64,000 nucleotides of DNA from an uncultured Actinomycetes bacterium (GCA_963780745.1 CAWACT010000010.1:49318-113317); one strand, 5' to 3'. Shown: positions 7,385 through 44,037, counted from the first letter of the stretch. Program-made: numbers and translations. The notes: generated by a model not told the origin, from the letters alone.

Positions 7385-8083
7385 GTGACAGAGGGCGAAC
7401 TGGTTCAGTTCAGTACTCGTTCAGGCGATGTGTTGTCTCGGTGGGCCTATCGGGTTCGACACCGGCGGCGATACCCTGTTCGGGTGATTGCGCCCAACGA
7501 TTCAGCGCCACCCGCCGGCGAGCCGCCGCAGGATCCACCGCTCCCAACCCGCTTTGGCCTGCTCACACTCGTATCGCTCGCCGTGGTGGGGATCGGCGTG
7601 GCAGTGGCGGCGGTGATGTCTGGAGGGGACGATGCCGCGCCAATGTCGACCGGTGCCGTCGGTTTGACGGGTTCACCCGCGCCCGACTTCACCGTGCCCC
7701 TCTTGGCCGGCGGAGACTTCAGTCTCCCCGAGCACATCGCCTCCGACGGAAGACCCCTGATCCTCAACCTTTGGGCCTCGTGGTGCATCCCATGCCGGGA
7801 CGAATTGCCCGAATTCGACCGGGTAGCGGTGGAGCACCCCGAGGTCGCGTTCCTCGGTGTGGCCGTGGAGGACCAAGAGGCAGCGGCCCGCGAATTCGCT
7901 GAGGAAGTCGGCGTCAGATTCCCTCTCGGGTTCGACGAGACCGGAACCGTGTCCACCTCCTATCAGACGTTCGGCCTGCCGGTGACGGTGGCCATCGCCT
8001 CCGACGGGACCGTGGTACGGCAGATCACCAGCCGGGTACCGGAGGAGCAGCTGCTCGAGCTCTTGGAGGAATTGAACGGCTGA
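7385..8083 (+). CDS. TlpA/ResA-like thiol-disulfide oxidoreductase, membrane-anchored (start uncertain: GTG 7385, 7430 or 7484)
   Basis: TM LLTLVSLAVVGIGVAVAAV followed by thioredoxin fold with WCIPC active site. Confidence 0.75.
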   Translation: MTEGELVQFSTRSGDVLSRWAYRVRHRRRYPVRVIAPNDSAPPAGEPPQDPPLPTRFGLLTLVSLAVVGIGVAVAAVMSGGDDAAPMSTGAVGLTGSPAPDFTVPLLAGGDFSLPEHIASDGRPLILNLWASWCIPCRDELPEFDRVAVEHPEVAFLGVAVEDQEAAAREFAEEVGVRFPLGFDETGTVSTSYQTFGLPVTVAIASDGTVVRQITSRVPEEQLLELLEELNG

Positions 8084-8097
8084 GGCCGGTTTCAGCC
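8078..8097. terminator. Hairpin GGCTGA-N8-TCAGCC between convergent genes; both stop codons lie in the arms
   Basis: Read directly; 6-bp stem only, no U-tract. Confidence 0.3.
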
Positions 8098-29040: not shown

Positions 29041-30630
29041 TTGGTGGAGTCCAGAACAGCGGTCGTGCTCGACGGTTCGAGCCTCACCGTCGGTGAAATC
29101 GTCTCGATTGGGCGCGGCGAGAGGGCGGTGACGCTCGATCCCGGCGCCATCGAACGGTGCATCGCCAGCCGCAGCTTTCTCGAGGAAGAAGTCGCCGCCG
29201 GCAAGGTGATCTACGGCGTCAACACCTCGTTTGGCCCGATGTGCAACAAGATCATCAGCGACGAGGAGATCGAGGCGCTCCAGGTCAACCTCATCCGGAG
29301 CCACGCCGCCGGATTGGGCGACCCACTCGATCCCGCTGTGGCCACCGCGGTCACCGCCGTCCGGCTCAACACATTGGTGAAGGGGTACAGCGGGGTCCGG
29401 ATTGAGTTGCTCGAGGCGTTGGCCGAGATGATCAACCGGGGCATCGCCCCTTACATCCCCGAGAACGGGAGCGTCGGTGCCAGCGGCGACCTCACCCACC
29501 TCGCCCATTTGGCGCTGGGTGTGATCGGTGAAGGTCAGCTCTTCTACAAGGGACGCCTGAGGCGAGCCCAGGAGGTGCTGGCCGAAGAGGGCCTCACCCC
29601 GGTCCGCCTCGCCTTCAAGGAGGGCTTGGCGATGATGAACGGGACGGCGGCCGCCACCGCCATCGCCGCTTTCGCCGTCCACGACGCCCGTCGGCTCCTC
29701 AACCTGGCCTGCGTCACCGGAGCGTTTGGGATCGAAGTGTTCGCTGGACTCGACGATGCCTTCGACGAGGACCTGCATCGCGTGAAGCCGCACCGCGGAC
29801 AGCAGCACATCGCCGACACCATCCGACTCCTGTGTCGTGATTCGAGCAACGTCACCAGCAGAGAGGGGATCCACTCGCTGATCCGGCAGGAGGAGACCAC
29901 CGGGCCCGTCTACGAGACAAGCCTCACCGTTCAGGACGTCTATTCGATCAGGTGCACCCCCCAGATTCTGGCGCCGGTGGTGGAGGCGATCGACGAGGCG
30001 ACCCGGGTGCTCGAGGTTGAGGCAAATTCGACCAACGACAACCCGCTGGTTTTTCCCGAGCAGCGCAAGGTGGTCCATGGGGGTAACTTCCACGGCCAGA
30101 GCGTCGGGTTCGTCTCCGATGTGCTGGCGATCGCCGTTTCGACGCTGTGCAACCTCTCGGAACGCCGCATCGCCAAGTACCTCGACGTGAAGCTCAACCA
30201 GGGCCTCCCCGAGTTCCTCATCGCCGGGACGGTCGGGCTCACTATGGGCTTTATGGGATCGCAGTACCTGGCCACATCGACCACCGCAGAGAACCGCCAG
30301 CTGGCCAACCCGGTGAGCACGCTCACAATCTCCACCAACGCCGCCAATCAAGATGTCGTCCCCATGTCCCCAGTGGCGGCGCGCAAGGCGCTTCGGGCTG
30401 TGGAGAACGCCAAGCACATCCTCACCCTCGAAGTTCTGGTCGCCATGCAGGCGCTCAGCTTCAGGGGTATCGACGGCCTCGGCACCGGAACGGGCCGGGT
30501 CCACGCCGTGCTCGACGAGCACTTCGAGCAGTACGACAACAACCGGGTCCTCCACGACGACCTCGTCCGCTTCCGCAGCCTGCTCTTCTCGTCGAATCTC
30601 CTCGACGACCTCAGTGGTTATCTGAACTAG
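29041..30630 (+). CDS. Aromatic amino acid ammonia-lyase family protein, HAL-type
   Basis: MIO triad in GSVGASGDLTHLAHL; selectivity pair S-H in NLIRSHAAG as in histidine ammonia-lyases. Confidence 0.8.
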   Translation: MVESRTAVVLDGSSLTVGEIVSIGRGERAVTLDPGAIERCIASRSFLEEEVAAGKVIYGVNTSFGPMCNKIISDEEIEALQVNLIRSHAAGLGDPLDPAVATAVTAVRLNTLVKGYSGVRIELLEALAEMINRGIAPYIPENGSVGASGDLTHLAHLALGVIGEGQLFYKGRLRRAQEVLAEEGLTPVRLAFKEGLAMMNGTAAATAIAAFAVHDARRLLNLACVTGAFGIEVFAGLDDAFDEDLHRVKPHRGQQHIADTIRLLCRDSSNVTSREGIHSLIRQEETTGPVYETSLTVQDVYSIRCTPQILAPVVEAIDEATRVLEVEANSTNDNPLVFPEQRKVVHGGNFHGQSVGFVSDVLAIAVSTLCNLSERRIAKYLDVKLNQGLPEFLIAGTVGLTMGFMGSQYLATSTTAENRQLANPVSTLTISTNAANQDVVPMSPVAARKALRAVENAKHILTLEVLVAMQALSFRGIDGLGTGTGRVHAVLDEHFEQYDNNRVLHDDLVRFRSLLFSSNLLDDLSGYLN

Positions 30631-31057: not shown

Positions 31058-31435
31058 ATGGACACTGCTCTTTGGATCGTGCAGTGGGTGCTTGCGGTGG
31101 CGTTCTTGATCTCGGGTCTGGGAAAGCTGCTCACCCCCGAGGACCGTCTTCGCAACAACAAGAACCTGAAGTGGATCGAGGACACCGGGGTCGAGCGGGC
31201 CCGGATCGCCGGAGGAGCCGAGGTCCTGGCATCGCTTGGCCTGATCCTCCCCGGCCTGACCGGCATCGCTCCGATCCTGACCCCTCTCGCAGCCATCGGC
31301 CTAGCGATCGTCATGCTGCTCGCCGCCCGACTCCATACCCGACGCAACGAGCCGCAGATCCGTGCAGTCAATTTGGTGGTTGTCGTGCTGGCGCTCTTCG
31401 TCGCCATCGGGCGCTTCATCATCACGGTCTCGTAG
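31058..31435 (+). CDS. DoxX-like membrane protein
   Basis: 4 TM segments; WIVQWVLAVAFLISGLGKL DoxX-like N-terminus. Confidence 0.7.
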   Translation: MDTALWIVQWVLAVAFLISGLGKLLTPEDRLRNNKNLKWIEDTGVERARIAGGAEVLASLGLILPGLTGIAPILTPLAAIGLAIVMLLAARLHTRRNEPQIRAVNLVVVVLALFVAIGRFIITVS

Positions 31436-31468: not shown

Positions 31469-31984
31469 ATGGATACCTGGGATGCGATTGCATCGCGCCG
31501 CAATGTCCGCCAATTCTCTCCGCAGCCGATCTCGCGAGACGACCTCGACCGGATCCTCGAAGCGGGACGGCGCACACCGTCGGCGGGCAACATCCAGCCT
31601 TGGGACTTCATCGTGGTCACCGACCCCCAAGTGCTCGCCGAGCTACCGCAAGTCTGGCGAGGCGCCGCCCACTTGGCCCGCGGCCAGGCAGCGGTCGTGC
31701 TGGTGGCTCCGGACGCTGCCGACCCTCGCACCCGAGAGCTGACCCAATACGATCTCGGCCAGGCGACGATGTCGATCATGCTGGCGGCTGCCGACCTGGG
31801 CATCGGCACCGGGCACTCCTCGGTGGACGATCAGGATCTCGCCAGGAGGTTGCTCGGTGTCCCCGACGACCGGGTCGTGGCGTGGATGATGGCTCTGGGC
31901 TACCCGGCCGACCGCCCGCTGGCCCCGATAGCCAAGCCAATGAGGCGACCATTCGACGAAGTGGTCCACCGCGAACGTTGGTGA
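31469..31984 (+). CDS. Nitroreductase family protein
   Basis: IASRRNVRQF, RTPSAGNIQPW motifs. Confidence 0.85.
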   Translation: MDTWDAIASRRNVRQFSPQPISRDDLDRILEAGRRTPSAGNIQPWDFIVVTDPQVLAELPQVWRGAAHLARGQAAVVLVAPDAADPRTRELTQYDLGQATMSIMLAAADLGIGTGHSSVDDQDLARRLLGVPDDRVVAWMMALGYPADRPLAPIAKPMRRPFDEVVHRERW

Positions 31985-32034: not shown

Positions 32035-35000
32035 ATGGACGAGCTGCGGATCCATCTCTTGGGTGGGTTCCTCCTCGAATGGGGGCAGCATCCCATCCCG
32101 CTGATCCCGTCACGGCTCGGCCGGTCGCTGCTCGCCTACCTGGTGATCAATCGAAACCGGCCCCAGATGCGGGACTACCTAGGTGGGATGTTCTGGCCCG
32201 ACCTGTCCGAGGGACGGGCTCGGCGGCGGCTCAGCCACACGCTCTGGCAGGTGCAGGACGCACTGTCTGAAGTCTGCGACCCACAGCGGTTCTTGGCAAT
32301 CACACCCGATGAGCTCGCATTTGCACCCACCGCTCCTTACTGGCTCGATGTCGAAGAGTTCGAACGGACACTCGAGCAGGTTGGCCGGCCCGACCCGGCG
32401 AGGGCGCCGGCCGCCGACCTGGAGCGCTTGCGCCACTCAGTCGAGCTCTACCGAGGCGACCTCCTACCTGGTTTCTACGAGGAGTGGGTGGTTCTCGAGC
32501 AGGAGCGCTACCAACAGCTGTTTCTCAGCGCGCTCGAGCAACTGGTCTCGCTGGAGAAGGCCCACGGCAACCACGAGGAGGCACTCACCTACGCACGCCG
32601 GCTCACCCACCACGACCCGCTGCGAGAGGCATCACACCAAGAGGTGATGAGGCTTTGCTTCCTGCTGGGCCGGGTGAACGAGGCAATGGCCCAGTACCGG
32701 CGTTGCGCCTCGGTGCTCGCTGAGGAGCTTGGGACCCAGCCATCCCCCGACACCACCGCGCTATACGACAAGATTGCCCGCTACCGGCAAATCGGGCTGC
32801 GTCCGCTCGAAACGGAGCCGCCACCTCCTCTCTTCCAGCCGGGCGGCAAGGCGCCGTTCGTGGGAAGGGCCGAGGAGCGTGCCACCCTCGTCGACGCCTT
32901 GGAGAGCACGCTCGGCTCGCGAGGCGGGGTGGTGGTGGTCGAGGGCGAGGCAGGCATCGGCAAGACACGTCTTGTCCGTGAGATCACCGAAGACGCCCGC
33001 TGGCGGGGCTTCGACGTCCTCTGGGGCGCCTGCAACCAATTGGGCGCCCTGCGCCCCTACGAGGCTCTCACTTCGGCGCTTGCCGGAGGGCTCACCGTTC
33101 TCCGCACCGAACAGCTCTCCCAGCAGGTCGACGGGATCTGGCTGCGCGAGGTGGCTCAGCTCATCCCATCGCTCGAGATGTGGTCCTCGAAGCTCCCCGC
33201 GGCCGACTCGCTGCGGGGCAAGGAGGCCCAGGAGCGCAAGCAGGAGGCGCTGGTCCAACTGGTTCTGGCGATCGGCCGCCTGGCTCCGCACCTCATCGTG
33301 ATCGACGACCTGCAGTGGGCTGACAAGGACACCCTGCGGGCCCTGACCCGTTTGGTGGACAGGGTCTCGGCGAGCCAGGTACTGCTGTGTGTGACCTACC
33401 GGCATGACGAGGCGCGCCAACGGGCCGACGTCTGGGACGCCATCCGCGAGCTCGACCGGAAAGCCGGGCGGGGTCGAGTGCTTCTCGGGCCACTGTCGGT
33501 GTTCGACACCGCCGAGCTCGTCGGGCGGGGATTCGGCGCTACTCGTGTTCCCAACCGATTCGTCACCCGGCTCCACAGGGAAACCAGCGGAACCCCGCTC
33601 TTCGTCCTCGAGACCCTGCGCGTCCTCCACGAGGAAGGCCACTCACTGGCCGATTTGGAAACGTCGCAGCTCCCGCTCCCCGCCAGCATCTACCACCTTG
33701 TTGCCGGCCGGGTGGCCGCAGTCGAGCCAGAGGTCCGGTCGGTGCTGGAAGCAGTCGCCGTCCACTCCACCGATGTGGACCTGCCGGCGCTGTTGGCAAC
33801 GGCCGAGGGCTCGCGCCCGGCCGTCTTGGCGGCGGTGGACGAGGCGGAGCGCACCGGTCTGCTGGTCGGCAGTGGCGATGAATACGGCTTCTATCACGAC
33901 GCAGTCCGCCGGGTGGTTTATGGCGAGATACCGACGAAGCGACGCCGCTTGCTCCACATCAGGGTGGCCGAAGTACTCGGGGCGCAGCACCCCGAACGCT
34001 GCGAGGAACTGGCCCACCACTACACCGAAGGAGGGGTCAGCGACAAGGCGGCCGCGGCGACCTGGGAGGCGGCGCGGCGCGCCGAGAGGCTGTTCGGGTA
34101 TGAGACCGCTGCCCGCCACTATGCGGCCGCCGTCGAACTGGCGGGGCCCGCCGCCTTCTCGGCCGGACAGCGGTTCGAGCTGCTCGGCGAGTACGAGGCA
34201 ACCCTCGGCGTGCTGGGGCGGCGTCACGAGCAAGACGAGGTGCTGGGCGACATGGCGCAGCTCGCCGTTGACCGGCCCGACCGCCTTGGCGAAGTGGAAC
34301 GGCGGCGCGCCTGGCTGCTCGCCAACACCGACCGGTTCGCCGAAGCCGAGCAGGCGGCGCAGCGCGCCCTCGAGCTTGCGGGCACGCACGGAAGCCGAAG
34401 GCGGTGCACTTACCGCTCTGGGCGCAGCGCTGAGCTGGTCGGGCAAGGTGCGACAGGCCATCCCCCACCTCCGAGCCGCCCTCGAGGTCTACAGGGGTAA
34501 CGCGAGCAAGGAGCCCGAAGCCCGCTTGGCGCTGGGGACCGCACTCAGCTACGAGGAATACGACGAGGCTGAAGGTCAGCTCGAGGCAGCCCTCGACCTG
34601 TGTGTCCAGACCAACGATCAGCGCGGACAGGCGGAAGCGCTCGGGGGCCTCGCCTCCATCCAGATGGAACGCGGCGATGCATCGGCGGCGGAGCGGTCGT
34701 ACCGCCAGGCGCTCTCGCTCTGCCAGGACATGGGTTACCGCTACGGCGAGGCGGTCATGCTGGTGAACCTCGCCAACCACCACTACGTCTCGGGGCGTAC
34801 CGGGCAGGCGGTCGGCAGCTACGAGCAGGCGCTCGAGGTCTTCCGCGCCATCGGCAACGCACGCGGCGAGGCCATGGTGCGGGCCAACGCCGCTTCGGTG
34901 TACCACCAATTGCTCGGGGACGATGATCGAGCCGCCGAGTGGGCCGGCGCTGCCCTCGAGTTCTTCGAGGAGATAGGTGACGAGCGCGGCCAGGCCCAAT

Positions 35001-35848
35001 GCCTCGAAGTCCTGGGCGGGATCGCTCGCCGCCGCGGCAAACTCGCCCGGGCGCGGAGACTCCTCGAGTCGGGGATACACAAGGCGGAGGCGAGCGGACG
35101 GCGCTGGGTTGAAGTCCAGCTCCTGCGCGCCTTGGCTCTGCTCGATCTCGACGCCGGCGATAGCAGGTCCGCTCTGGCGAGGATCGACGAGGCCGAGGAG
35201 ACCTGCCGCCAGTTGGGCCTGAGGGACGTCGAGGTGAGTCTGCTCGCAGCGCGCGGCCGCGCCCTAGCCGCCAACGGGAACATGGAGTCGGCTCTGGAGG
35301 CGACGTCGGCGGCGATGCGCAGCCTCGGTCCCAGCGTCGAGCAGGGCTACCTCGTCCCACACGCCCATGCCACAGTCTTGGGGTTGGCACGACCCGAAGA
35401 ACCACGCAGTGAGTTCATCGACCAGGCGTACCGCGGCTTGATGGCGGTGCTCGAGGGTTTGCACCCCGATCAGCTGGAGAAGGCGCTCGCCGGGGTGCCG
35501 GAGCACCGCGCCATCGTCGACAACTGGGAGGAGACCGCCCCGCGCCGGGTGGCTCTGGCCATGCCGCGGCGCGATGTGCCTGTCGGCCGGACTCTGACCG
35601 ATGCTGATCTGATCGAAGTCACCTTGACGTTGGAGGTTCCGCCTGACGAGGCTGTCGAGGGCGAAGGCTCGCACCGTCGTAGCCGTCTTCTTCGGCTGCT
35701 TGGCCAAGCCGAGGAGCAGGGCGGGCTGCCCACCATCGACCACCTCGCTGCGGCGCTCTCGGTAAGCCCTGCCACGGTGAAGCGCGACCTCCAGATGTTG
35801 CGCGCCGAGGGGTTCCCGGTCCGCACCAGGGGCTCGCGTACCGGCTGA
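32035..35848 (+). pseudogene. AfsR-like regulator: SARP (OmpR-wHTH + BTAD), NB-ARC/AAA ATPase, TPR array, C-terminal DeoR-like HTH; one frame break near GGG 34380-34382
   Basis: ORF 32035..34500 (LLGGF...LWQVQDAL, BTAD, Walker A GEAGIGKT, hhhhDDLQWAD) joins ORF 33404..35848 at LELA|ARTEAEGGALTALG; C-terminus LAAALSVSPATVKRDLQMLRAEG. Confidence 0.8.
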
Positions 35849-35880
35849 GCCGGAGGTCGGTCGAAATATGTCTCGGGGGG

Positions 35881-35899
35881 GAGACACCTGCGAGACACC
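35881..35899 (+). promoter_or_regulatory. Direct repeat GAGACACC-N3-GAGACACC (11-bp period); candidate SARP binding boxes
   Basis: Read directly; the first box is also the right arm of TGTCTC-G6-GAGACA (35869-35886). Confidence 0.4.
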
Positions 35900-35932
35900 C
35901 TTGGGGGACCATAGGGCATTAAGGAGGTGTGG

Positions 35933-36031
35933 ATGACCCGCCGTCGTATATCCATATTCGTCACGACGCTGTTCGCCATGCTGGCGTCGGCCGCCCCGGC
36001 CTTGGCCGGGATCGACAACATGCGCCTTTGA
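35933..36031 (+). CDS. Mini-ORF, 32 aa: signal peptide MTRRRISIFVTTLFAMLASAAPALA plus GIDNMRL; may extend to 36259 if TGA 36029 is an artefact
   Basis: AAGGAGG 35921-35927, 5-nt spacer, ATG; n/h/c signal-peptide layout; hand-counted GC3 27/32; below the ORF-track size cut-off. Confidence 0.45.
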   Translation: MTRRRISIFVTTLFAMLASAAPALAGIDNMRL

Positions 36032-36147
36032 GGGAAGGAGACCGACTGCAACTACCGGGGCACGGCTGAGCGCTCACTCGAGAGCCTCGGCGGGAGCTTG
36101 CTCGAGGGGGTGCCGTGCGCCGGCCGGCTCGGAAAGACAAGCAACTT

Positions 36148-36191
36148 CCCATCGGGAAGGGAAGTCCCCATCGGGAAGGAAACCCGATGGG
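36148..36191 (+). repeat. CCCATCGGGAAGG x2 (36148, 36167) followed by inverted copy CCCGATGGG (36183-36191); 9-bp stem hairpin
   Basis: Read directly. Confidence 0.85.
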
Positions 36192-36345
36192 CGGCGGTAG
36201 TGCCAAGGGGGTCAAGCACCACCGCCGCCGCCTCGGGACCGGAGCCCGGGGGTAGCTGAAGGCATATCGCCGGGCCGTTCAACAACTTTAATCATTGCTC
36301 ACTGCACATGTTGGTCCCCGCGACCGATATGTTTTTCGCGCTCTC

Positions 36346-36855
36346 TCAACCGACCAGAGGCCGGCTGACGCCTACACCTCCCAGCCTGTCCACCCCGAAC
36401 CGCTCGATCTCCGCATCGAGGTCGAGCCTGCGGGAAACGGGGGTAGCGTCGGGCCCGAGGAGATCGGCAGGCACCAGCCAGCTGACCTCGAATTCGATGC
36501 CGTCGAGGTCCCGGCCGTAGAGGGCTTTGGTGCTGCCATGGTCGGTCGCACCCACCAGCGCCCCGGCGTTGCTCAGCCTATCGGCCAGGTTGGCGAGGTC
36601 GCCGAGAGTGTCCACCTCCCAGGCAAGGTGGTACAGCCCCACAGCAGTCCTGCCCGCGGGAGAATCGGATGCGGCTTCGCCGATGGTGAACAGCCCCAGA
36701 TCGTGGTCGTTGGTCGATCCTTCGGCCTGGAGGAACACGCCACCTGGGAAGTTGAAGGGCAAACGCCGGAACCCGAGAACTTCGGTATAGAAGTCGGCGC
36801 TTCGATCGGCATCGCGGACAAATAGGACGGCGTGGTTGAGTCGGTTGATGGGCAT
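36346..36855 (-). CDS. VOC (glyoxalase/extradiol dioxygenase-fold) family protein
   Basis: ATG 36855; RLNHAVLFVRDADRSADFYTEVLGF ... LYHLAWEV. Confidence 0.8.
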   Translation of the reverse strand: MPINRLNHAVLFVRDADRSADFYTEVLGFRRLPFNFPGGVFLQAEGSTNDHDLGLFTIGEAASDSPAGRTAVGLYHLAWEVDTLGDLANLADRLSNAGALVGATDHGSTKALYGRDLDGIEFEVSWLVPADLLGPDATPVSRRLDLDAEIERFGVDRLGGVGVSRPLVG

Positions 36856-36969
36856 TCGGCTCCAATCTCGATTGACCAGCACAACGTCAGGAGCACCGCC
36901 GGGCTTCCCGCTGGAGTCGGGTAACACCCCCGACCGGGCACGGCCGACTCATGGGGAGGAGTTCAAATC

Positions 36970-37284
36970 TCAATCGAGGTGGAACACTTCGGCCAGCGCC
37001 TCCATCACAGTGTCGGCGGGGACATAGTCGAAATACTCGGCCATCGACTCCTGCCAGCGGGCGTTGACCTCCTCCGAGGCCATCCCGGCGAGAGCTTGCT
37101 CCAAGGAGACTGGTGTCTCGAAGTACCCGAAAAGGGTGCCGTCGCCGCGGAGGAACAAGCTGTAGTTGTGCCATCCGTGCCGTCTCAAGGCATCGAGCAT
37201 CTCCGGCCAGACCTCTTGGTGCGCCGCGCGGTATTCCTCCAGTCGATCCTTCCGGACCCGGAGCACAAAGCCGACGCGCTGCAT
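36970..37284 (-). CDS. rhaM: L-rhamnose mutarotase
   Basis: GAAGGAGG before ATG 37284; EYRAAHQEVWPEMLDALRRHGWHNYSLF motif. Confidence 0.85.
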   Translation of the reverse strand: MQRVGFVLRVRKDRLEEYRAAHQEVWPEMLDALRRHGWHNYSLFLRGDGTLFGYFETPVSLEQALAGMASEEVNARWQESMAEYFDYVPADTVMEALAEVFHLD

Positions 37285-37295
37285 TTGGGCCTCCT

Positions 37296-38057
37296 TCACA
37301 AGAGCTCCACCGACGACCGGAAAGGATCGAGCCGCCCGTCGCCAGGGTCGAGCTCGGTGACGAGGAGATCCACCTCTTCGAGCTCGAACATGCGCGCCGG
37401 CGCCCTGGTGCCGAGCTTGCTTCGGTCGACGGCGAGGATCAGCCTCGAACTCGTCTCGCTGAAGGCACGTTTCACCTCCGACTCGGCCAGGCTGGCCTCC
37501 GACGAACCGACATCGTGCGCCAAGGCGGCGCCGGAGCAGATGAACGCGTCGTAGAGGAACGACCGCGCTACCCGGACTGCCATCGCACCGACCAGGCTCC
37601 CGGTGCGGGGCTCCTCCGTCCCGCCGGTGAGCGTCGCCGCGATCCCGGGTTTCCCTGTCATCGCCTGGAAGGTGTCGACGCCGTTGGTCACCAATGTCAG
37701 GTCCCGACCCCCCTCGATGCTCCTGGCGAGACGATGGACGGTGCTCGATGCGTCGAGCGCCACCGTTCCCGTGGGGGGTATCAGCGGAAGCAGCTTCTCG
37801 GCGATTCGACTCTTCGCCTTGGCGTTGTGCCGGTGCCGCTGGACGAAGGGCTCAGGTCCCACCGCCACCGCGCCGCCTCGTACGCGGCGCACCGCCCCCA
37901 GCGCCTCCAATTCCGCCAGGTCGCGCCGGATGGTCATCTCGCTCACGCCGAACTCAATCGCCAGATCGTCGATGCGGACGCCTCCTCGTTCGACGATGAG
38001 ACGCCGCACGTCGATGAGCCGCTCTTCGGGGCTCATCGACTGGTGGTCGTCTGACAT
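37296..38057 (-). CDS. DeoR family transcriptional regulator (rhamnose operon)
   Basis: HTH IDDLAIEFGVSEMTIRRDLAELE plus DeoR C-terminal sugar-binding domain. Confidence 0.85.
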   Translation of the reverse strand: MSDDHQSMSPEERLIDVRRLIVERGGVRIDDLAIEFGVSEMTIRRDLAELEALGAVRRVRGGAVAVGPEPFVQRHRHNAKAKSRIAEKLLPLIPPTGTVALDASSTVHRLARSIEGGRDLTLVTNGVDTFQAMTGKPGIAATLTGGTEEPRTGSLVGAMAVRVARSFLYDAFICSGAALAHDVGSSEASLAESEVKRAFSETSSRLILAVDRSKLGTRAPARMFELEEVDLLVTELDPGDGRLDPFRSSVELL

Positions 38058-38058
38058 C

Positions 38059-39396
38059 TCAACTCTCCGCGGCGAGCCAGTGGTCGGCTCCATCCCGGCC
38101 GTCAAAATGCCCGAGGGCGATTCCCTGGACCACCGCATTGCCCAATGCCGTCGCCTCGGGATCGCCTACGAGGACCGGCAGCCCGGTGGATTCGGCAAGT
38201 AGATCCGCAAGGAGACCGGTCCGAGCCCCACCACCGACGAGGGCGAGCCGGGTCATCTCGGTCGCGGTGAGGACCTCCAGTTCACCTACGACCCGCGCCA
38301 CGCCGTGGGCGATCGACTCGAGGATCGACCGGACGACCACGCCTCGGGGTACCCCTGCCGGAAGCCCGGCTGCTGCGCGGATCTCGGCTTCCATGTCATC
38401 CGGTGCCACCAGCCGCTTGTCGGCGGCGTCGAACCGCGGCACCGGGGCGGTGACCGCGGTGGCTTCGTCGATGAGGACATCGACCGGCGGGTCACCCCAG
38501 ATCGGCCGGCAAGCTTCGACCATCCAGAAGCCGACCACGTTCTTGAGGAAGCGAAAGCCGCCGAGAGCGCCCGACTCGTTGGAGAAGTTTGCCGCCATGG
38601 CGGCGGGCGATGTGTCGGCGTCGGTGCGCTCGATCCCGACGATCACCCAACTTCCGGTAGACACGAACACCGTCCCCGGCTCCCTGCCGACCGGGACCCC
38701 CAGAAACGCCGATGCAGTGTCGTGCGAACCGACCAGGTGCACCGGGATCCCGCGCCATTTGCCTACCGCCTGCCCGGCAGCGGCCACGCCCGGCAGCATC
38801 TGAGGTGACATCCCGATCGCCTCGATCAATTCAGCGGACCATTGACCGCTCCTGGCATCGAGCAGGCCTGTGGTCGAAGCGTTCGACCGCTCGGCACCCT
38901 CGAAACCGGTCAACATCGAGACGAGAAGGTCGGGAAGCAGTAGCACGCGTGCCGCCCGCTCCATCTCGGTCCGATCGTGGGCGGCGAGTTGGAAGATGGT
39001 GTTGATCCCCATCAACTGGATACCCGTGATCTGGTAGAGGTGTTCGAGCCCGATCGACTCGGCCGTGGCCATCCACCCGTCGGTTCGAGAGTCGCGATAG
39101 GAGTAGGGGTCGGCGATCACCCGACCGGCGTCGTCGATCAACCCGTAGTCCACGCCCCAGCCGTCGATTCCGATCGACTCGACCGAACCCGACTCGATCC
39201 CGATCTCGAGCCCCATCTCCACTTCGGCCACCATCCTCTCCCAGTCCCAGCGGAGGGCTCCACCCGGGTCGGCGACCGGGCCGTGCGGCCAGCGGTGGAG
39301 GACCTCGACCGCCGGGGCGGCGGCGAGGTCGACGGCCGCCACTCGCACCGAGCCGGCACCGAGGTCGACCGCCAGCACCCGGGCGGAGTCGTTCAT
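38059..39396 (-). CDS. rhaB: Rhamnulokinase (FGGY family)
   Basis: LAVDLGAGSVRV, GIDGWGVDYGL, YQITGIQLMGINTIFQL. Confidence 0.85.
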   Translation of the reverse strand: MNDSARVLAVDLGAGSVRVAAVDLAAAPAVEVLHRWPHGPVADPGGALRWDWERMVAEVEMGLEIGIESGSVESIGIDGWGVDYGLIDDAGRVIADPYSYRDSRTDGWMATAESIGLEHLYQITGIQLMGINTIFQLAAHDRTEMERAARVLLLPDLLVSMLTGFEGAERSNASTTGLLDARSGQWSAELIEAIGMSPQMLPGVAAAGQAVGKWRGIPVHLVGSHDTASAFLGVPVGREPGTVFVSTGSWVIVGIERTDADTSPAAMAANFSNESGALGGFRFLKNVVGFWMVEACRPIWGDPPVDVLIDEATAVTAPVPRFDAADKRLVAPDDMEAEIRAAAGLPAGVPRGVVVRSILESIAHGVARVVGELEVLTATEMTRLALVGGGARTGLLADLLAESTGLPVLVGDPEATALGNAVVQGIALGHFDGRDGADHWLAAES

Positions 39397-40679
39397 AACC
39401 CGGTGGACACCGAGGCCAGGCCCCGCCTCTCGATCATCTCCTGGCGGTACCCGAGGGAGCGGTAGGCAGAAAGCGGCGCGATGGCGGCCCCTTGCCTCCG
39501 GCGCGCTTCGGCGACGAGAGGGCGAACATCGGTCCGGAAGGCGGACTGGAGGATTTCCTGGGCGGCGGTGGCGTCGTTGTCGTCCTGGGCGGCGATCAAT
39601 GCAGCGCCGTCCACCAGCATCGCCTGGGCATATGCGATTGAGACTGCCTCCGTCGACTGGATGAGGTCCTCGAGCGGGTCCTTGATGTTGTGGCTCTGGT
39701 CGATCATGTAGGCCAGGTCGGGAAGGCGGCCCTCGCCGGCGCGGATCAGCTCACAAAAGATGAGGAAGAGTTGGTAGGGGCTGATCGACCCGGTGGTGAG
39801 ATCGTCGTCGCCGTACTTGGAGTCGTTGAAGTGGAACCCCCCCAACCGACCGACCATCGCCAACCTGCTCACGATCTGCTCGATGTTGGCGTTGGGGAGG
39901 TGATGACCGAGGTCGACAAGGCAAGATGCCTTGTCACCGGCCGCCTGCGCCAGCAGGAGCGACGAACCCCAGTCGTGGTTGACCGTCGCATAGAAGGCGG
40001 GCTCGTACGGCTTGTGCTCGGTGTACATCCGCCAGTCATCGGGGAGATGGGCGTGGACCTGCTGCAGTCCTTCGGCGACGCGCTCGAACTGGGTCCGATG
40101 ATCCGCCTGCCCGGGGTGGTTGATCCCGTCCGCCAGCCAGACGGTCAGCGCCCGCGACCCGAGACGCACCCCGAGGTCGATCACTTGGACTTTGTGCTCC
40201 ACCGCCGCTTCCCGCACCGCCGGGTCTGCGTTGGCCAGGCTGCCGAACTTGTAGGTGATGGCGCCGTCCCTTGTGGTCGCCGGGTTGTCCTGGAAGGTGT
40301 TCGAGTTCATCGCATCGAACTCGATCGAGCGCTCCGCGGCGTACTCGCGAAGCCCGTCGGGGTCCTCGGGGTGGTCCCAGGGGACGTGGAGCGAGATCGA
40401 CCGGTTGCTGGCGGTGAGCGCGTTGAGCGTCGCCACGTCGTCGACCTTCTCCTCGGTGGTGCTCGGCTCACCGCCCAGGGGGAAACGCCCGAACCTGGTG
40501 CCCCCGGTCCCCACCGCCCACGACGGAGCCGCCACCGAGAAATCGACAAGGGCATCTAGCAGCGCGCTCGCCGTCACGGTGGAGGTCCGCTCCAGGCTGG
40601 TCTCCAGGGACCCGAGATCGGCGCGCAGCGCCTCCTCGTACGGTGCGTTCAGTTCGGCGATGCGTGCCGGGTCGATCAT
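39393..40679 (-). CDS. rhaI: L-rhamnose isomerase, actinobacterial type
   Basis: TIM-barrel sugar isomerase ~428 aa; operon context; ATGA overlap with rhaB. Confidence 0.8.
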   Translation of the reverse strand: MIDPARIAELNAPYEEALRADLGSLETSLERTSTVTASALLDALVDFSVAAPSWAVGTGGTRFGRFPLGGEPSTTEEKVDDVATLNALTASNRSISLHVPWDHPEDPDGLREYAAERSIEFDAMNSNTFQDNPATTRDGAITYKFGSLANADPAVREAAVEHKVQVIDLGVRLGSRALTVWLADGINHPGQADHRTQFERVAEGLQQVHAHLPDDWRMYTEHKPYEPAFYATVNHDWGSSLLLAQAAGDKASCLVDLGHHLPNANIEQIVSRLAMVGRLGGFHFNDSKYGDDDLTTGSISPYQLFLIFCELIRAGEGRLPDLAYMIDQSHNIKDPLEDLIQSTEAVSIAYAQAMLVDGAALIAAQDDNDATAAQEILQSAFRTDVRPLVAEARRRQGAAIAPLSAYRSLGYRQEMIERRGLASVSTGL

Positions 40680-40689
40680 GGAACGCCTC

Positions 40690-42738
40690 CTACCGTAGGA
40701 ATGCCGCAGCGACGCCGCTGTCTACCGGGATGATCAGACCTGTGGTCTGGCTGAGCGACCCGCCGACCAGGGCGAGCGCCGCCTGCGCCACGTGCTCGGG
40801 GAGCACTTCCTGTTTGAGCAGCGTCCTGTTGGCATAGAAGCGGCCGAGTTCTTCCTCGGGAACGCCGTAGACCCTGGCCCGTTCCGCCCCCCACCCGCCG
40901 GCGAATATCCCCGAGCCTTTCACCACCCCGTCGGGGTTGATCCCATTCACACGGATCCCCCACTCGCCGAGCTCGGCGGCGAGCAGCCGGACTTGATGCG
41001 CCTGGCTCGCCTTGGCTGACCCATAGGCGAGGTTGTTCGGCCCGGCGACCACGGCGTTTTTGCTCACCACGTAAACGATGTCGCCGCCCCTTCCTTGGGC
41101 GATCATCGCGGCGGCTGCCTGCTGCGACACCAGGAACGAGCCTTTTGCCATCACATCGTGCTGCAGGTCCCAGTCCTTTTCGGTTGTCTCGAGCAGTGCC
41201 TTCGAGATGGACAATCCGGCGTTGTTGACGACGATGTCGACCCCTCCGTATCGGAGCAACACCTCGTCTATCGCCGCCCGTACCGCTTCCGGGTCGGAGA
41301 CATCGGCCTGAACCCACATCGTCGTGTCGGTTGTTCCGATCTCGTTGGCGGTCTGGACCGCCACATCAGGGTCGATATCGGCTACAGCTACCGCCGCCCC
41401 GTTTTCGCTGAAGATGGCGGCGATGGCCCTGCCGATCCCCGAGCCGCCCCCTGTCACCAACGCCACCTTGCCGGTCAGCGGCTTCGCAGGAGGTCGCCGC
41501 CTCAGCTTCATCTCCTCCAGCATCCAGTACTCGATCCGGAACTTCTCCCGCTCGGGCACCGGCGCGTAGGTGGACACCGATTCCGCCCCCTTGACCACGT
41601 TGATGGCGTTGATGTAGAACTCGCCGGCAATCCGGGCGCTCGAAGCATCCGGCCCGAAGCTGAACATCCCCAAGCCGGGAACCAAGACGATGGCGGGGTC
41701 GGCCCCCCGCATTGGTGGTGTCTCCTCGTCGGCGTACCGCTCGTAGTACCGGCGGTACTCCTCGCGGTACTCGACGTGCAGTTCGTTGAACCGCTCGATC
41801 TGCGCCTCGATCGGCTCGGTGTGCGGCAGGTCGAGCAGCAACGGTCTGACTTTGGTACGGATGAAGTGGTCGGGACACGAGGTCCCCAGCGGGACGACCC
41901 GGGGGGCCGCTTCACGACCGATGAAATCGAGCACCAGATCGTCATCGAACCAATGGCCGACCACATGGTTGTCGGTGGAGCAGGCACCGCGGATCACCGG
42001 CGCCAAGGCGGCGGCGCGCCTCCGTTGCGCCTCCGGGGCTAGCGGCTCGAATCCGGGGCGGAGCGGTCCCAACGGATCGGGGCGCCCGTGCGTCTCCAGG
42101 AACTCCGCTGCTGTGCGGATTGTCGCCAGCGTCGTCGCCTCGCATTGCTCGGAGGTCTCGCCCCACGTCGTCAGCCCGTGCCCACCCAGGACCACGCCGC
42201 GCAGGCTGGGCTGATCCCGCGCCATCTCGGCGATATTCAGACCCAACTCGAACCCGGGTCGCCGCCATGGGACCCAGCCGATCTCGTCGCCGAAGCACTG
42301 CTTGGTCAGGGCCTCACCGTCGGCGGCCGCCGCCAGAGCGATGACCGCATCGGGGTGGAGGTGATCGACATGCGATGCTCCCAACAGACCATGCATGGCG
42401 GTGTCGATGCTCGGCGCCGCACCTGGCGGTCCAAAGCCGCAGTAGTCGAGGAGAGACTGCATCTCGTCCTCGTGCTGCTCCCCCCGGTAGACCGAGCGGA
42501 GCGCCCGCAGCCGATCCACCCGGAGAGCGGCCAGTTGGGGGACGCCGAGCGTCCCGAGATCCCCACCCGAGCCCTTGACCCACATGACCTCGACCTCGTC
42601 GCCCGATGCCGGGTCAATCGCCGTCGCCTTGGCCGAGGTGTTGCCACCTGCGTAGTTGGTGTTACGACGGTCGGCGCCCAGCCGGTTGGAGCGCCCAATC
42701 AACTGCGCGACAGCGGATGGCATGTCTGGACCTGTCAT
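40690..42738 (-). CDS. Bifunctional rhamnulose-1-phosphate aldolase / short-chain dehydrogenase
   Basis: N-terminus RSNRLGADRRNTNYAGGNTSAK aldolase; C-terminus VTGGGSGIGRA SDR with YVVSKNA; upstream 141 codons of track ORF discounted. Confidence 0.85.
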   Translation of the reverse strand: MTGPDMPSAVAQLIGRSNRLGADRRNTNYAGGNTSAKATAIDPASGDEVEVMWVKGSGGDLGTLGVPQLAALRVDRLRALRSVYRGEQHEDEMQSLLDYCGFGPPGAAPSIDTAMHGLLGASHVDHLHPDAVIALAAAADGEALTKQCFGDEIGWVPWRRPGFELGLNIAEMARDQPSLRGVVLGGHGLTTWGETSEQCEATTLATIRTAAEFLETHGRPDPLGPLRPGFEPLAPEAQRRRAAALAPVIRGACSTDNHVVGHWFDDDLVLDFIGREAAPRVVPLGTSCPDHFIRTKVRPLLLDLPHTEPIEAQIERFNELHVEYREEYRRYYERYADEETPPMRGADPAIVLVPGLGMFSFGPDASSARIAGEFYINAINVVKGAESVSTYAPVPEREKFRIEYWMLEEMKLRRRPPAKPLTGKVALVTGGGSGIGRAIAAIFSENGAAVAVADIDPDVAVQTANEIGTTDTTMWVQADVSDPEAVRAAIDEVLLRYGGVDIVVNNAGLSISKALLETTEKDWDLQHDVMAKGSFLVSQQAAAAMIAQGRGGDIVYVVSKNAVVAGPNNLAYGSAKASQAHQVRLLAAELGEWGIRVNGINPDGVVKGSGIFAGGWGAERARVYGVPEEELGRFYANRTLLKQEVLPEHVAQAALALVGGSLSQTTGLIIPVDSGVAAAFLR

Positions 42739-42865
42739 TGCAGCCGTCTTGATCGGCCGGTCGTTAGAACTCTCATTATCTCCAAAAGCGATCCCAGTAC
42801 AGGATCCTCCAGTCGTGGCGGCAGTCTGGACCCGGACCGGAGCCCGGGCCCAGGTTGCCCTCGGG

Positions 42866-44037
42866 TCAGCTGTCAATGTTGTCGGCGTTGAACTTCTTGA
42901 TCGGCCCCAACAGGACACGAAGGCCGGCATCGCGACCAGGATCTTCGTCGATCGTGTACTCACCCAGGCGACCTGCCTCGAACTGTTGACCTGCCTCCGC
43001 CTCGATCTGGCCGGTGGCGAGGCCGTAACCGACGTAGTAGGACAGGTAGCCGAGGTCGGGGAAGCTCCACAAGGCGAATTCAGGGGCGCATCCGCTGAGC
43101 GTGTAGTCGCGCATCTCGGTCGAGACTCCCAAGCCGGAGACCTTGACCCGATCACATTCATCGGCTTGCGTCACGACCTGGGCGGCCGCCACGATGCCGA
43201 CGGTGGTCGGGGCCATGATCAGGTCCAGGTCGGGATTCTCGAGCAACTCCTCCGCCCGATCCTGGCTGTCCTGGGGCACGTCGTTCCCGTAGACGGTGTC
43301 GACCAGTTCGATGTTCTCGTACTCCGGGGTCGCCAGCAGTTCCTCGAGTGAAGCGATCCAGATGTTCTGGTTCGCTGCTTCGGGCGTCGCGGAGAGAATG
43401 GCCATCTGGCCCCCCTCCTCGCCGAGGATGCTGCGAGCCATCTCCGCCATCACCTGGCCGGCACCGCTCAGATCGGCAGGCGCGATGTACACCGACTCGC
43501 CCTCAGCGGACGGGATCGGGGAGTCCCATGTCACGACCGGGATGCCAGCCTCTTGCGCAGCCGCCGCGGCCGGGCCGAGCTGATCACCGGCGTTGTTCGA
43601 GACCATGATGACGTCGACCTGTTGAGTGACCGCGTTGGTGACGATGTCTATGCCGGCGGTGGTGTCGGCGCAGTCGGCCGGGCCCACCAGCTCGGTCGGT
43701 TCGGATTCGAGCTCCCCGGCCGCCTCCACCGCACCATCGTTCGCCTGCGGGAACACTGGGTTGGTGGTGCACTTCCCAAGGAATGTCCCGACGATCGAGC
43801 CCGCCGGGCCGATCGTCACCGGCCCTCCGCTGCGACTGTGGTATCGGCCGCGACCGTGGTCTCGGCCCCTGCTGTCGTGTCCGCTGCGACGGTGGTGTCC
43901 GCCGCCGCCGTGGTGTCCGCACCAGCGGTGGTGTCCGCTCCGGCGGTCGTGTCGGCTGCACCACCGCCACATGCCGCTACGACCATGGCCAGCGCCACCA
44001 GGGCGACCGCGGGGATGCGTCGTCTAATCGCTGTCAC
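42866..44037 (-). pseudogene. Sugar (rhamnose-type) ABC substrate-binding lipoprotein, one frame break (CC run ~43820-43824)
   Basis: GAAGGAGA before GTG 44037; lipobox [10 protein letters not shown], (A/G)ADTT linker repeats (ORF 43816..44070), then [12 protein letters not shown]... in ORF 42866..43972. Confidence 0.75.

Follow-up and report, generated by a model that had tools for sequence, protein, structure and literature searches.

The regulator and mini-gene locus

The DNA analysed here, referred to as the window, is a stretch of 64,000 nt (64 kb) from an uncultured Actinomycetes bacterium (GCA_963780745.1, CAWACT010000010.1:49318-113317), and positions are numbered throughout within this whole stretch. 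Its plus strand carries the gene of a large cytoplasmic-type regulator that combines a SARP domain, a STAND-type NOD ATPase, TPR repeats and a C-terminal helix-turn-helix (HTH) domain. A spacer of 84 nt separates the stop codon of this gene from the start of a mini open reading frame (mini-ORF) whose product resembles a signal peptide extended by a tail of a few residues, and the spacer holds tandem repeats arranged as in SARP-dependent promoters. Comparative sequence data indicate that this cassette is a real, widespread and unannotated pairing of a regulator and a mini-precursor, with a SARP-type promoter, across uncultured Actinomycetota. The features of the locus are as follows.

32035-34389, plus strand: 5' part of the regulator gene in frame 1, encoding the SARP domain, the NOD/AAA_16 P-loop ATPase and the first TPR-like helices
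34389-34391, plus strand: frameshift site, 2 nt fewer than in relatives at GGCAC^CGGCAC, with a stop in frame 1 at 34500
34391-35848, plus strand: 3' part of the regulator gene in frame 2, encoding the TPR superhelix, a helical linker with a beta-hairpin and the C-terminal HTH
35881-35902, plus strand: candidate SARP operator made up of the 11-bp direct repeats GAGACACCtgc and GAGACACCctt
35903-35910, plus strand: degenerate third repeat unit GGGGGACC, in 11-bp phase after two perfect GAGACACC boxes and overlapping the start of the -10-like hexamer
35907-35912, plus strand: -10-like hexamer GACCAT, 8 nt past the second heptamer GAGACAC
35921-35927, plus strand: Shine-Dalgarno site AAGGAGG
35933-36031, plus strand: mini-ORF, 32 codons and a stop, with the predicted signal peptide MTRRRISIFVTTLFAMLASAAPALA (35933-36007) and the tail GIDNMRL (36008-36028)
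36032-36262, plus strand: structured GC-rich 3' region of ~230 nt, hairpins with A(A/G)GGGGG loops, terminal hairpin at 36190-36231

A conserved mini-gene downstream of the regulator

The mini-ORF translates as MTRRRISIFVTTLFAMLASAAPALAGIDNMRL, followed by the stop. A first-pass annotation of this DNA had described its Shine-Dalgarno site as lying 5 nt ahead of the ATG at 35933 and had counted by hand a G or C at 27 of the 32 third codon positions (GC3); the site is as described and the count was reproduced. It had also proposed that regulator and mini-gene form a cognate pair, and asked whether such an ORF recurs downstream of related regulators. The loci compared came from three sources, namely an ENA contig with 67% identity, a set with a single genome for each species, and JGI metagenomes; those with a full-length regulator ortholog and downstream DNA (~49) were counted. 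An equivalent ORF of 29-34 aa lies on the same strand 3' of the orthologous regulator at 37 of the ~49 loci, starting 75-165 nt after the regulator stop in 35 of them and ~540 nt after it in two (L095 and L130). It recurs at regulator identities of 38-87% and is present at almost every locus with an identity of at least 38%, and within this clade regulator and mini-ORF were never seen apart. At distant homologs (28-36% identity, mostly Chloroflexota-like) the mini-ORF is absent. The proposal of a cognate pair is thus strongly supported by synteny and by the signature of purifying selection described below.

Several observations bear on the coding nature of the mini-ORF. The family pattern, written as a regular expression, returned 39 matches in a six-frame search of 2.46 Mb that included 60 loci encoding other SARP-NOD proteins; 35 of these were the mini-ORFs and 4 were background. 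A GGAGG-type site stands 5-9 nt ahead of the start in almost all copies. The ratio of non-synonymous to synonymous differences (pN/pS, Nei-Gojobori) is well under 1 in each informative pair (0.05/0.37 for the window versus L018, 0.05/0.69 for L005 versus L093 and 0.07/0.61 for L092 versus L093). Finally, the exact window peptide and many relatives occur in public protein collections, each labelled 'hypothetical protein'. These pattern counts, ribosome-binding sites, substitution ratios and database entries show that the ORF is no product of chance, and the comparative sequence evidence indicates that the mini-ORF is a real, conserved gene under purifying selection. Its product has no match in Pfam or NCBIfam. 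Exact-sequence contig look-ups with the mini-ORF and three neighbouring window proteins returned no match, and neither did a megablast comparison of the locus with plasmids.

The opposite view would be that the mini-ORF is not a gene at all, either a chance ORF in GC-rich intergenic DNA or the remnant of a larger, frameshifted gene for a secreted protein extending towards 36259. Indel errors do occur in the assemblies of the window and of its closest relatives, and a few gene calls lengthen the ORF (P0126 to 54 aa, P0130 to 45 aa), as such a remnant would suggest. Against this, start, Shine-Dalgarno site, length and stop are the same across 37 independent loci, short-read assemblies included, the search set yields only the four background matches, pN/pS stays low and the sequence downstream of the ORF is unconserved beyond the closest clade. 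The comparative data effectively refute this view.

Precursor anatomy and tail classes

The alignment of the precursors comprises 50 distinct sequences that share one order of elements: Met and two to four Arg or Lys, an uncharged hydrophobic stretch of ~15-18 residues, a motif resembling a cleavage site, the tail and the stop. The motif, [A/Q/S/T]-[P/S]-A-[L/F/M]-A, is near-invariant, and the tail measures 5-8 residues in all 50 precursors and exactly 6 in 35 of them. Cys occurs in none of the 50, so that there is no lipobox. This layout corresponds to the n, h and c regions known from Sec signal peptides: Ala occupies -3 and -1, position -4 holds a helix breaker, and the tail makes up the whole 'mature' part; the signal-peptide features were judged purely by heuristic (basic N-terminus, uncharged core, Pro at -4, Ala at -3 and -1). 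From knowledge of such families we infer export of the window product and cleavage between ALA and G, and for the precursors in general we consider it probable that they are exported and cut to leave a hexa- or heptapeptide.

The stop is kept 5-8 codons beyond the AxA site in 50 of 50 distinct precursors, and because of this conserved position the extended product to 36259 that had been suggested earlier is unsupported; the stretch in question is a structured non-coding region conserved in the closest clade only.

Variation is distributed unevenly along the precursor, the tail being under the tighter constraint. Within clusters formed at 90%, the hydrophobic core varies and the hexapeptide core is invariant: GIDNMR never changes in its own cluster, its seventh residue being free (L, H, G, P or I); the clusters of AVVNIR and of SVRDMS likewise show a single hexapeptide each. 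Tail identity is 0.81 at a core identity of 0.6-0.75. A comparison across clades sorts the tails into distinct classes, namely [GA][ILV][DV]N[MI]R, S[VI]x[DNQ]M[ST], I[LW]RPGH, [DN]G[ID]WG, G[VI]xNLG and a few others. Some single metagenomes contain two or three cassettes that differ in tail class (L087, L093 and L107 in Ga0326597; L084 and L092 in Ga0214471; L091 and L101 in Ga0224512), and such mixtures in one sample are what private signalling channels of coexisting populations would look like.

A SARP-type promoter layout for a probable monocistronic unit

In published SARP promoters, direct repeats lie 11 bp apart and the 3' repeat is 8 bp from the -10 element (PMC10936776). AfsR provides an example: its SARP domain binds the afsS promoter as a dimer, on a pair of 11-bp repeats overlapping a -35 element that is itself poor (PMC10936776). 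In its sequence layout, the region upstream of the mini-ORF follows this arrangement in the window and, among 34 distinct loci, in 28. The boxes, GAGA(C/T)A in tandem with an 11-bp period, are present in 28 of the 34 distinct orthologous upstream regions, compared with 1% of random 140-nt pieces, and the enrichment is specific to this period, other periods not being enriched. In the window, GAGACACCtgcGAGACACC at 35881-35899 is the sole perfect (zero-mismatch) site of its kind in the 64 kb, and no other GAGACACC-N3-GAGACACC sites were found there above chance. The -10-like hexamer, which is mostly CATAGT or CATCCT at other loci, played no role in aligning the boxes; at the fixed 8-nt offset, 27 of 28 loci nonetheless share an A at its position 2 and 25 of 28 a T at its position 6. 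This layout points to the SARP domain of the neighbouring regulator as the most likely direct activator of the mini-gene; we regard such activation as likely, and the transcript would start near 35919.

Loci without such boxes, all of the class in which QSAFA precedes AVVN[MI]R, show other short repeats, for example CGATTCT at a 9-bp period, as well as a conserved GCCGAT(T)CTCC. Between loci with and without GAGACA boxes, no diagnostic difference was seen in the recognition helix of the winged helix.

Terminator-like hairpins follow the mini-ORF in all clades and no co-oriented downstream gene is conserved among the loci, the orientation of the next gene being variable; because of these two observations, the mini-gene is best described, on sequence grounds, as its own small monocistronic transcription unit. 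A reading as a leader peptide or as part of an operon was rejected for the same reasons. In the window, the structured 3' region is shared with L018, L009 and L002, the closest clade only, and double-sided changes were found at 12 of its 58 predicted pairs. Against Rfam, 35500-36700 yielded nothing beyond sub-threshold matches to small RNAs (sRNAs). Read on the minus strand, the loops of 36032-36262 would be C-rich, as in 6C-like sRNAs.

Architecture and integrity of the regulator

The full regulator measures ~1271 aa and its family members 1250-1330 aa. Its SARP domain (OmpR-type winged helix and BTAD) spans residues 1 to ~250: Pfam scored BTAD at 7e-30 (aa 104-247) and gave no Trans_reg_C score at E 0.01 or better, and the SARP half matched AfsR (8k60, 5e-11) and EmbR (2fez, 3e-9, residues 8-253) among PDB sequences. 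The ATPase is covered by AAA_16 (9e-25, aa 274-451), with Walker A (GEAGIGKT) and Walker B (LIVIDD) both intact in the translation, and is followed by TPR_12 (4e-22) and, at the C-terminus, by HTH_11 and HTH_DeoR (1e-5) as well as DUF1670. On the DNA, the TPR superhelix lies at ~34391-35320 and the HTH at ~35663-35806. The SARP/NB-ARC/TPR/HTH build that the first-pass annotation had read from the sequence is therefore borne out by the scored BTAD, AAA_16, TPR_12 and C-terminal domains, as is the end of the gene at 35848, where a TGA occupies 35846-35848. Weak matches to MalT-like TPR models were obtained in Pfam and NCBIfam, and every NCBIfam model scored below its cutoff, including that for AfsR (NF053617, 54 bits versus 1430). 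The family is large, with 1679 matches at E < 1e-20 to proteins of ~1280 aa, and its hosts are mostly Acidimicrobiia, Nitriliruptorales and other Actinomycetota metagenome-assembled genomes (MAGs). An anti-phage STAND (Avs-like) defence role was considered and rejected, PADLOC having returned no more than a generic TPR model and some weak matches of no relevance.

The same annotation had taken the regulator for a single ORF of ~1271 codons, which overlooked a frameshift. The interval 32035-35848 counts 3814 nt, no multiple of 3, so that the gene is split in the window: frame 1 runs from 32035 to the stop at 34500, and homologous reading resumes in frame 2 at ~34391-35848. Comparison with L009, L018 and protein P0001 places a loss of 2 nt inside GGCAC^CGGCAC. 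P0001 is an intact, 95%-identical protein that is continuous across this site (…ALELAGTGTEAEGG…). The nearest genomic relatives, L018 (87% identity) and L009 (71%), are both long-read MAGs of uncultured Actinomycetes, and each has several frameshifts in its own regulator (4001-7813 in L018, 3998-7790 in L009). Because these long-read relatives are frameshifted as well, and because the frame downstream of the site in the window is open and conserved over 486 codons, an assembly indel error seems a likelier cause of the 2-nt gap than a pseudogene.

The regulator as a candidate peptide sensor

The C-terminal 485 residues of the regulator were modelled with confidence by AlphaFold2 (pLDDT 94, pTM 0.83), and the model contains ~10 TPR-like helical hairpins, a short beta-hairpin and the terminal HTH. 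The top PDB matches of the TPR region, by sequence and by Foldseek, are eukaryotic LGN/Pins TPR superhelices that were solved with extended peptides in their groove. No RRNPP receptor appeared among the PDB sequence matches or among the top 50 Foldseek matches of this region. Feedback sensing of the tail peptide by the TPR domain of the regulator is an attractive hypothesis, and one that we hold tentatively, at somewhat less than even confidence; that the ligand of the regulator is the very tail encoded beside it is speculative.

Comparison with known regulatory systems

One close precedent is AfsR-AfsS of Streptomyces coelicolor. In both systems the regulator combines SARP, NOD ATPase and TPR domains, a small gene on the same strand lies immediately downstream, and two 11-bp direct repeats cover the -35 position ahead of a weak -10 (CACTGT for afsS; GACCAT or CATAGT for the cassette). 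The analogy to afsR-afsS, first drawn from gene position, holds for that position and can now be extended to promoter architecture, with tandem 11-bp boxes 8 bp from a -10-like hexamer. The hallmarks of large, AfsR-type SARPs were all found at the locus, namely winged helix and BTAD, P-loop NOD, TPR and the layout of the target promoter. There are differences as well: the cassette regulator is no AfsR ortholog, falling short of the equivalog threshold (54 bits versus 1430) and carrying the extra C-terminal HTH/DUF1670, its box sequence is GAGACA, and its small gene encodes a signal-peptide-like precursor of 30-32 aa. AfsS, by contrast, is a cytoplasmic protein of 63 aa that is not known to have the build of a signal peptide.

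The topology recalls the RRNPP(A) systems of Bacillota (PlcR-PapR, NprR-NprX, Rap-Phr, AimR-AimP, Rgg-SHP and PrgX-PrgQ), in which a cytoplasmic TPR regulator likewise stands beside a small gene with a Sec-like product and a short, clade-specific end, and a circuit of this form suggests positive feedback. The published RRNPP signature comprises a propeptide of 10-100 aa next to the receptor, its secretion by Sec and a TPR receptor of 250-500 aa (PMC10075063). Of the five elements in this signature, four were assessed and three of these are found in the cassette: a small propeptide (32 aa), a TPR receptor, and adjacency, with the propeptide 84 nt 3' of the regulator. The receptor itself is of a different kind: its length is ~1271 aa as against 250-500 aa, a SARP domain and a STAND ATPase take the place of the N-terminal XRE-type HTH of RRNPP members, neither its sequence nor its fold resembles those of RRNPP receptors, and its host phylum is Actinomycetota. 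The cassette tail, moreover, directly follows the predicted signal-peptidase site, with no need for a pro-region or a second protease. Because the receptor differs in size and relatedness and the host phylum is another, the comparison of sequences and models indicates that the cassette is no RRNPP member, just as the missed equivalog threshold and the extra HTH domain set it apart from AfsR orthologs.

Two further comparisons are instructive. In STAND activators of the MalT/LAL type, too, a P-loop NOD is combined with a DNA-binding domain and with helical repeats that form a C-terminal sensor, and ligand-gated oligomerisation is the logic expected of such proteins. MalT senses maltotriose, a small sugar, and has a LuxR-type HTH; we know of no adjacent peptide gene for it. 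The PrgQ/iCF10 and SHP precursors (22-23 aa) resemble the mini-precursors in consisting of a hydrophobic export sequence, a C-terminal active peptide of 7-9 residues and little else. They are exported by PptAB and cleaved by Eep and are not known to have a classical AxA site, whereas the cassette precursors keep the canonical Ala at -3 and -1.

A proposed two-gene signalling cassette and its alternatives

Taken together, these data incline us, by a modest degree, to read the locus as a self-contained two-gene signalling cassette, in which a cytoplasmic SARP-STAND(NOD)-TPR-HTH regulator of ~1271 aa and a mini-precursor gene form an autoinduction loop. A dimer of SARP domains would bind the two GAGACACC boxes, which would stand in for a -35 element in the promoter just downstream of the regulator gene, and would thereby turn on the monocistronic mini-gene. 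Its product would be a minimal Sec-type precursor in which 24-25 aa (basic N-terminus, hydrophobic core, A-P-A-L-A) are directly followed by a tail of 6-7 residues, so that signal peptidase I could free GIDNMR(L) outside the cell with no further processing. The freed hexa- or heptapeptide would serve as the extracellular signal and, most probably, would be re-imported and read by the TPR domain of the regulator, gating the NOD ATPase and thus SARP activity and closing the loop. A broader version of this scheme can be envisioned, in which the cassette represents an independently evolved peptide-pheromone quorum sensing of Actinomycetota (Acidimicrobiia, Nitriliruptoria and relatives): a re-imported linear hexapeptide would bind the STAND TPR sensor, ATP-dependent oligomerisation would license the SARP domain to act on the pheromone gene and a regulon, and the clade-specific tails would constitute private pherotypes, several per community. 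We put this version forward as a possibility that falls somewhat short of an even chance.

Several observations weigh against signalling through such a loop. As AfsR-AfsS illustrates, the small gene lying 3' of a large SARP may serve as output and nothing else. Genes resembling an oligopeptide permease (Opp), searched for by tblastn, were found near L002 only and are absent at all other loci. When the identity of the regulator was compared domain by domain with tail similarity, all domains followed shared descent and no clear TPR signal emerged. At ~30 aa, the precursor lies at the short end of the range for Sec export, GAGACA boxes are absent at six loci (L004, L006, L091, L095, L128 and L130), and the regulator of the window is frameshifted, so that its TPR and HTH parts would not be made if the frameshift were genuine.

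The main rival to feedback sensing is a cassette that works strictly in the manner of AfsR-AfsS: the regulator would activate the mini-gene without having the peptide as its ligand, its TPR-NOD part would sense phosphorylation, a metabolite or another protein, and the peptide would act on an unlinked membrane sensor kinase or on other cells, or would be an antagonist or antimicrobial. Promoter and position are as for afsS, no TPR-specific co-evolution was detected and no importer is linked, all of which favours this arrangement. We consider it unlikely, if still of appreciable weight, since the clade-specific tail classes co-diverge with the regulator and the pair is never apart within the clade, a divergence that suits a private pair of receptor and ligand better than a conserved external target, and since the modelled TPR superhelix appears to be of a peptide-binding type. 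A lower probability attaches to an uncleaved small membrane protein of 30-32 aa, N-terminus inside and six-residue C-terminus outside, that would modulate a membrane protein in the way of the small feedback peptide MgrB and release no diffusible signal. Its one hydrophobic span after a basic N-terminus would fit such a protein, and very short precursors may be poor substrates of signal peptidase; yet a helix-breaking Pro and small residues at -3 and -1 (xPALA, SAFA, PAFA) are near-invariant at 5-8 residues from the stop throughout the 50 precursors, and a plain anchor would need no such fixed site, which makes this option improbable. Least probable of the three is a precursor of a ribosomally synthesized and post-translationally modified peptide (RiPP), whose N-terminal part would be the leader and whose tail would be modified by enzymes encoded elsewhere. 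The small size, the variable C-terminal core and a weak, sub-threshold likeness of the TPR half to the model of the RiPP-associated TPR protein HaaT (83 bits versus a cutoff of 1125) might suggest it, but no modifying enzyme or transporter is conserved beside the cassette, the supposed leader is built exactly as a Sec signal peptide, and the tails lack Cys and show few of the Ser/Thr patterns typical of RiPP cores.

Implications for signalling in Actinomycetota

The textbook picture of Actinomycetota is one of signalling by small molecules, gamma-butyrolactones among them. In the study presenting RRNPP_detector, receptors were restricted to 250-500 aa and the signals of Actinomycetota were explicitly described as enzyme-made small molecules (PMC10075063), and a 2016 review of actinobacterial quorum sensing contains no report for Acidimicrobiia or Nitriliruptoria. 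In the literature searched, of which coverage was incomplete, no account was found of a secreted peptide linked to a SARP or STAND protein, and within these bounds the earlier suggestion that no peptide-sensing module of the SARP/AfsR type has been described for Actinomycetota stands. The cassette may be the first peptide-pheromone-type signalling module of this phylum. If the two-gene signalling reading is correct, genetically encoded linear-peptide signalling reaches abundant, mostly uncultured actinobacteria of soils, sediments and the sea, the logic of a TPR receptor with an adjacent propeptide arose independently on a STAND/SARP chassis, and the long-unexplained TPR domain of large SARPs gains a concrete candidate class of ligands. 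Existing detectors overlook the cassette because they limit receptors to 250-500 aa. With a synthesisable hexapeptide as candidate ligand and a defined 22-bp candidate operator, the system is easily testable. Even as pure output, the mini-genes would mean that SARP control extends to a widespread family of secreted micro-peptides that has gone unannotated.

Genomic surroundings and distant homologs

No other neighbour of the cassette is conserved, and the flanking genes differ between the window and L002. In the window, a rhamnose catabolism cluster (36970-43161, minus strand) encoding a mutarotase, a DeoR regulator, a rhamnulokinase, an isomerase and an aldolase/short-chain dehydrogenase fusion converges on the cassette, with a glyoxalase/VOC gene (36346-36927) between them. 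Upstream lie genes for an aromatic amino-acid lyase (29041-30630), a DoxX-like protein (31058-31435) and a nitroreductase-like protein (31469-31984). None of these genes, from the rhamnose cluster to the lyase, is conserved beside the cassette elsewhere.

Distant regulator homologs without the mini-ORF (28-36% identity, apparently Chloroflexota-like) are followed by another ORF, of ~70-83 aa, with the motif LRLW…W.(V/I)EIQN.KTGE (5129-5362 in L126, 3473-3685 in L137 and 6435-6686 in L117), which may be an alternative partner of these regulators. Downstream of a further distant homolog without the mini-ORF, L013 carries an ORF (7827-8090) that ends in four tandem copies of WEIPG.

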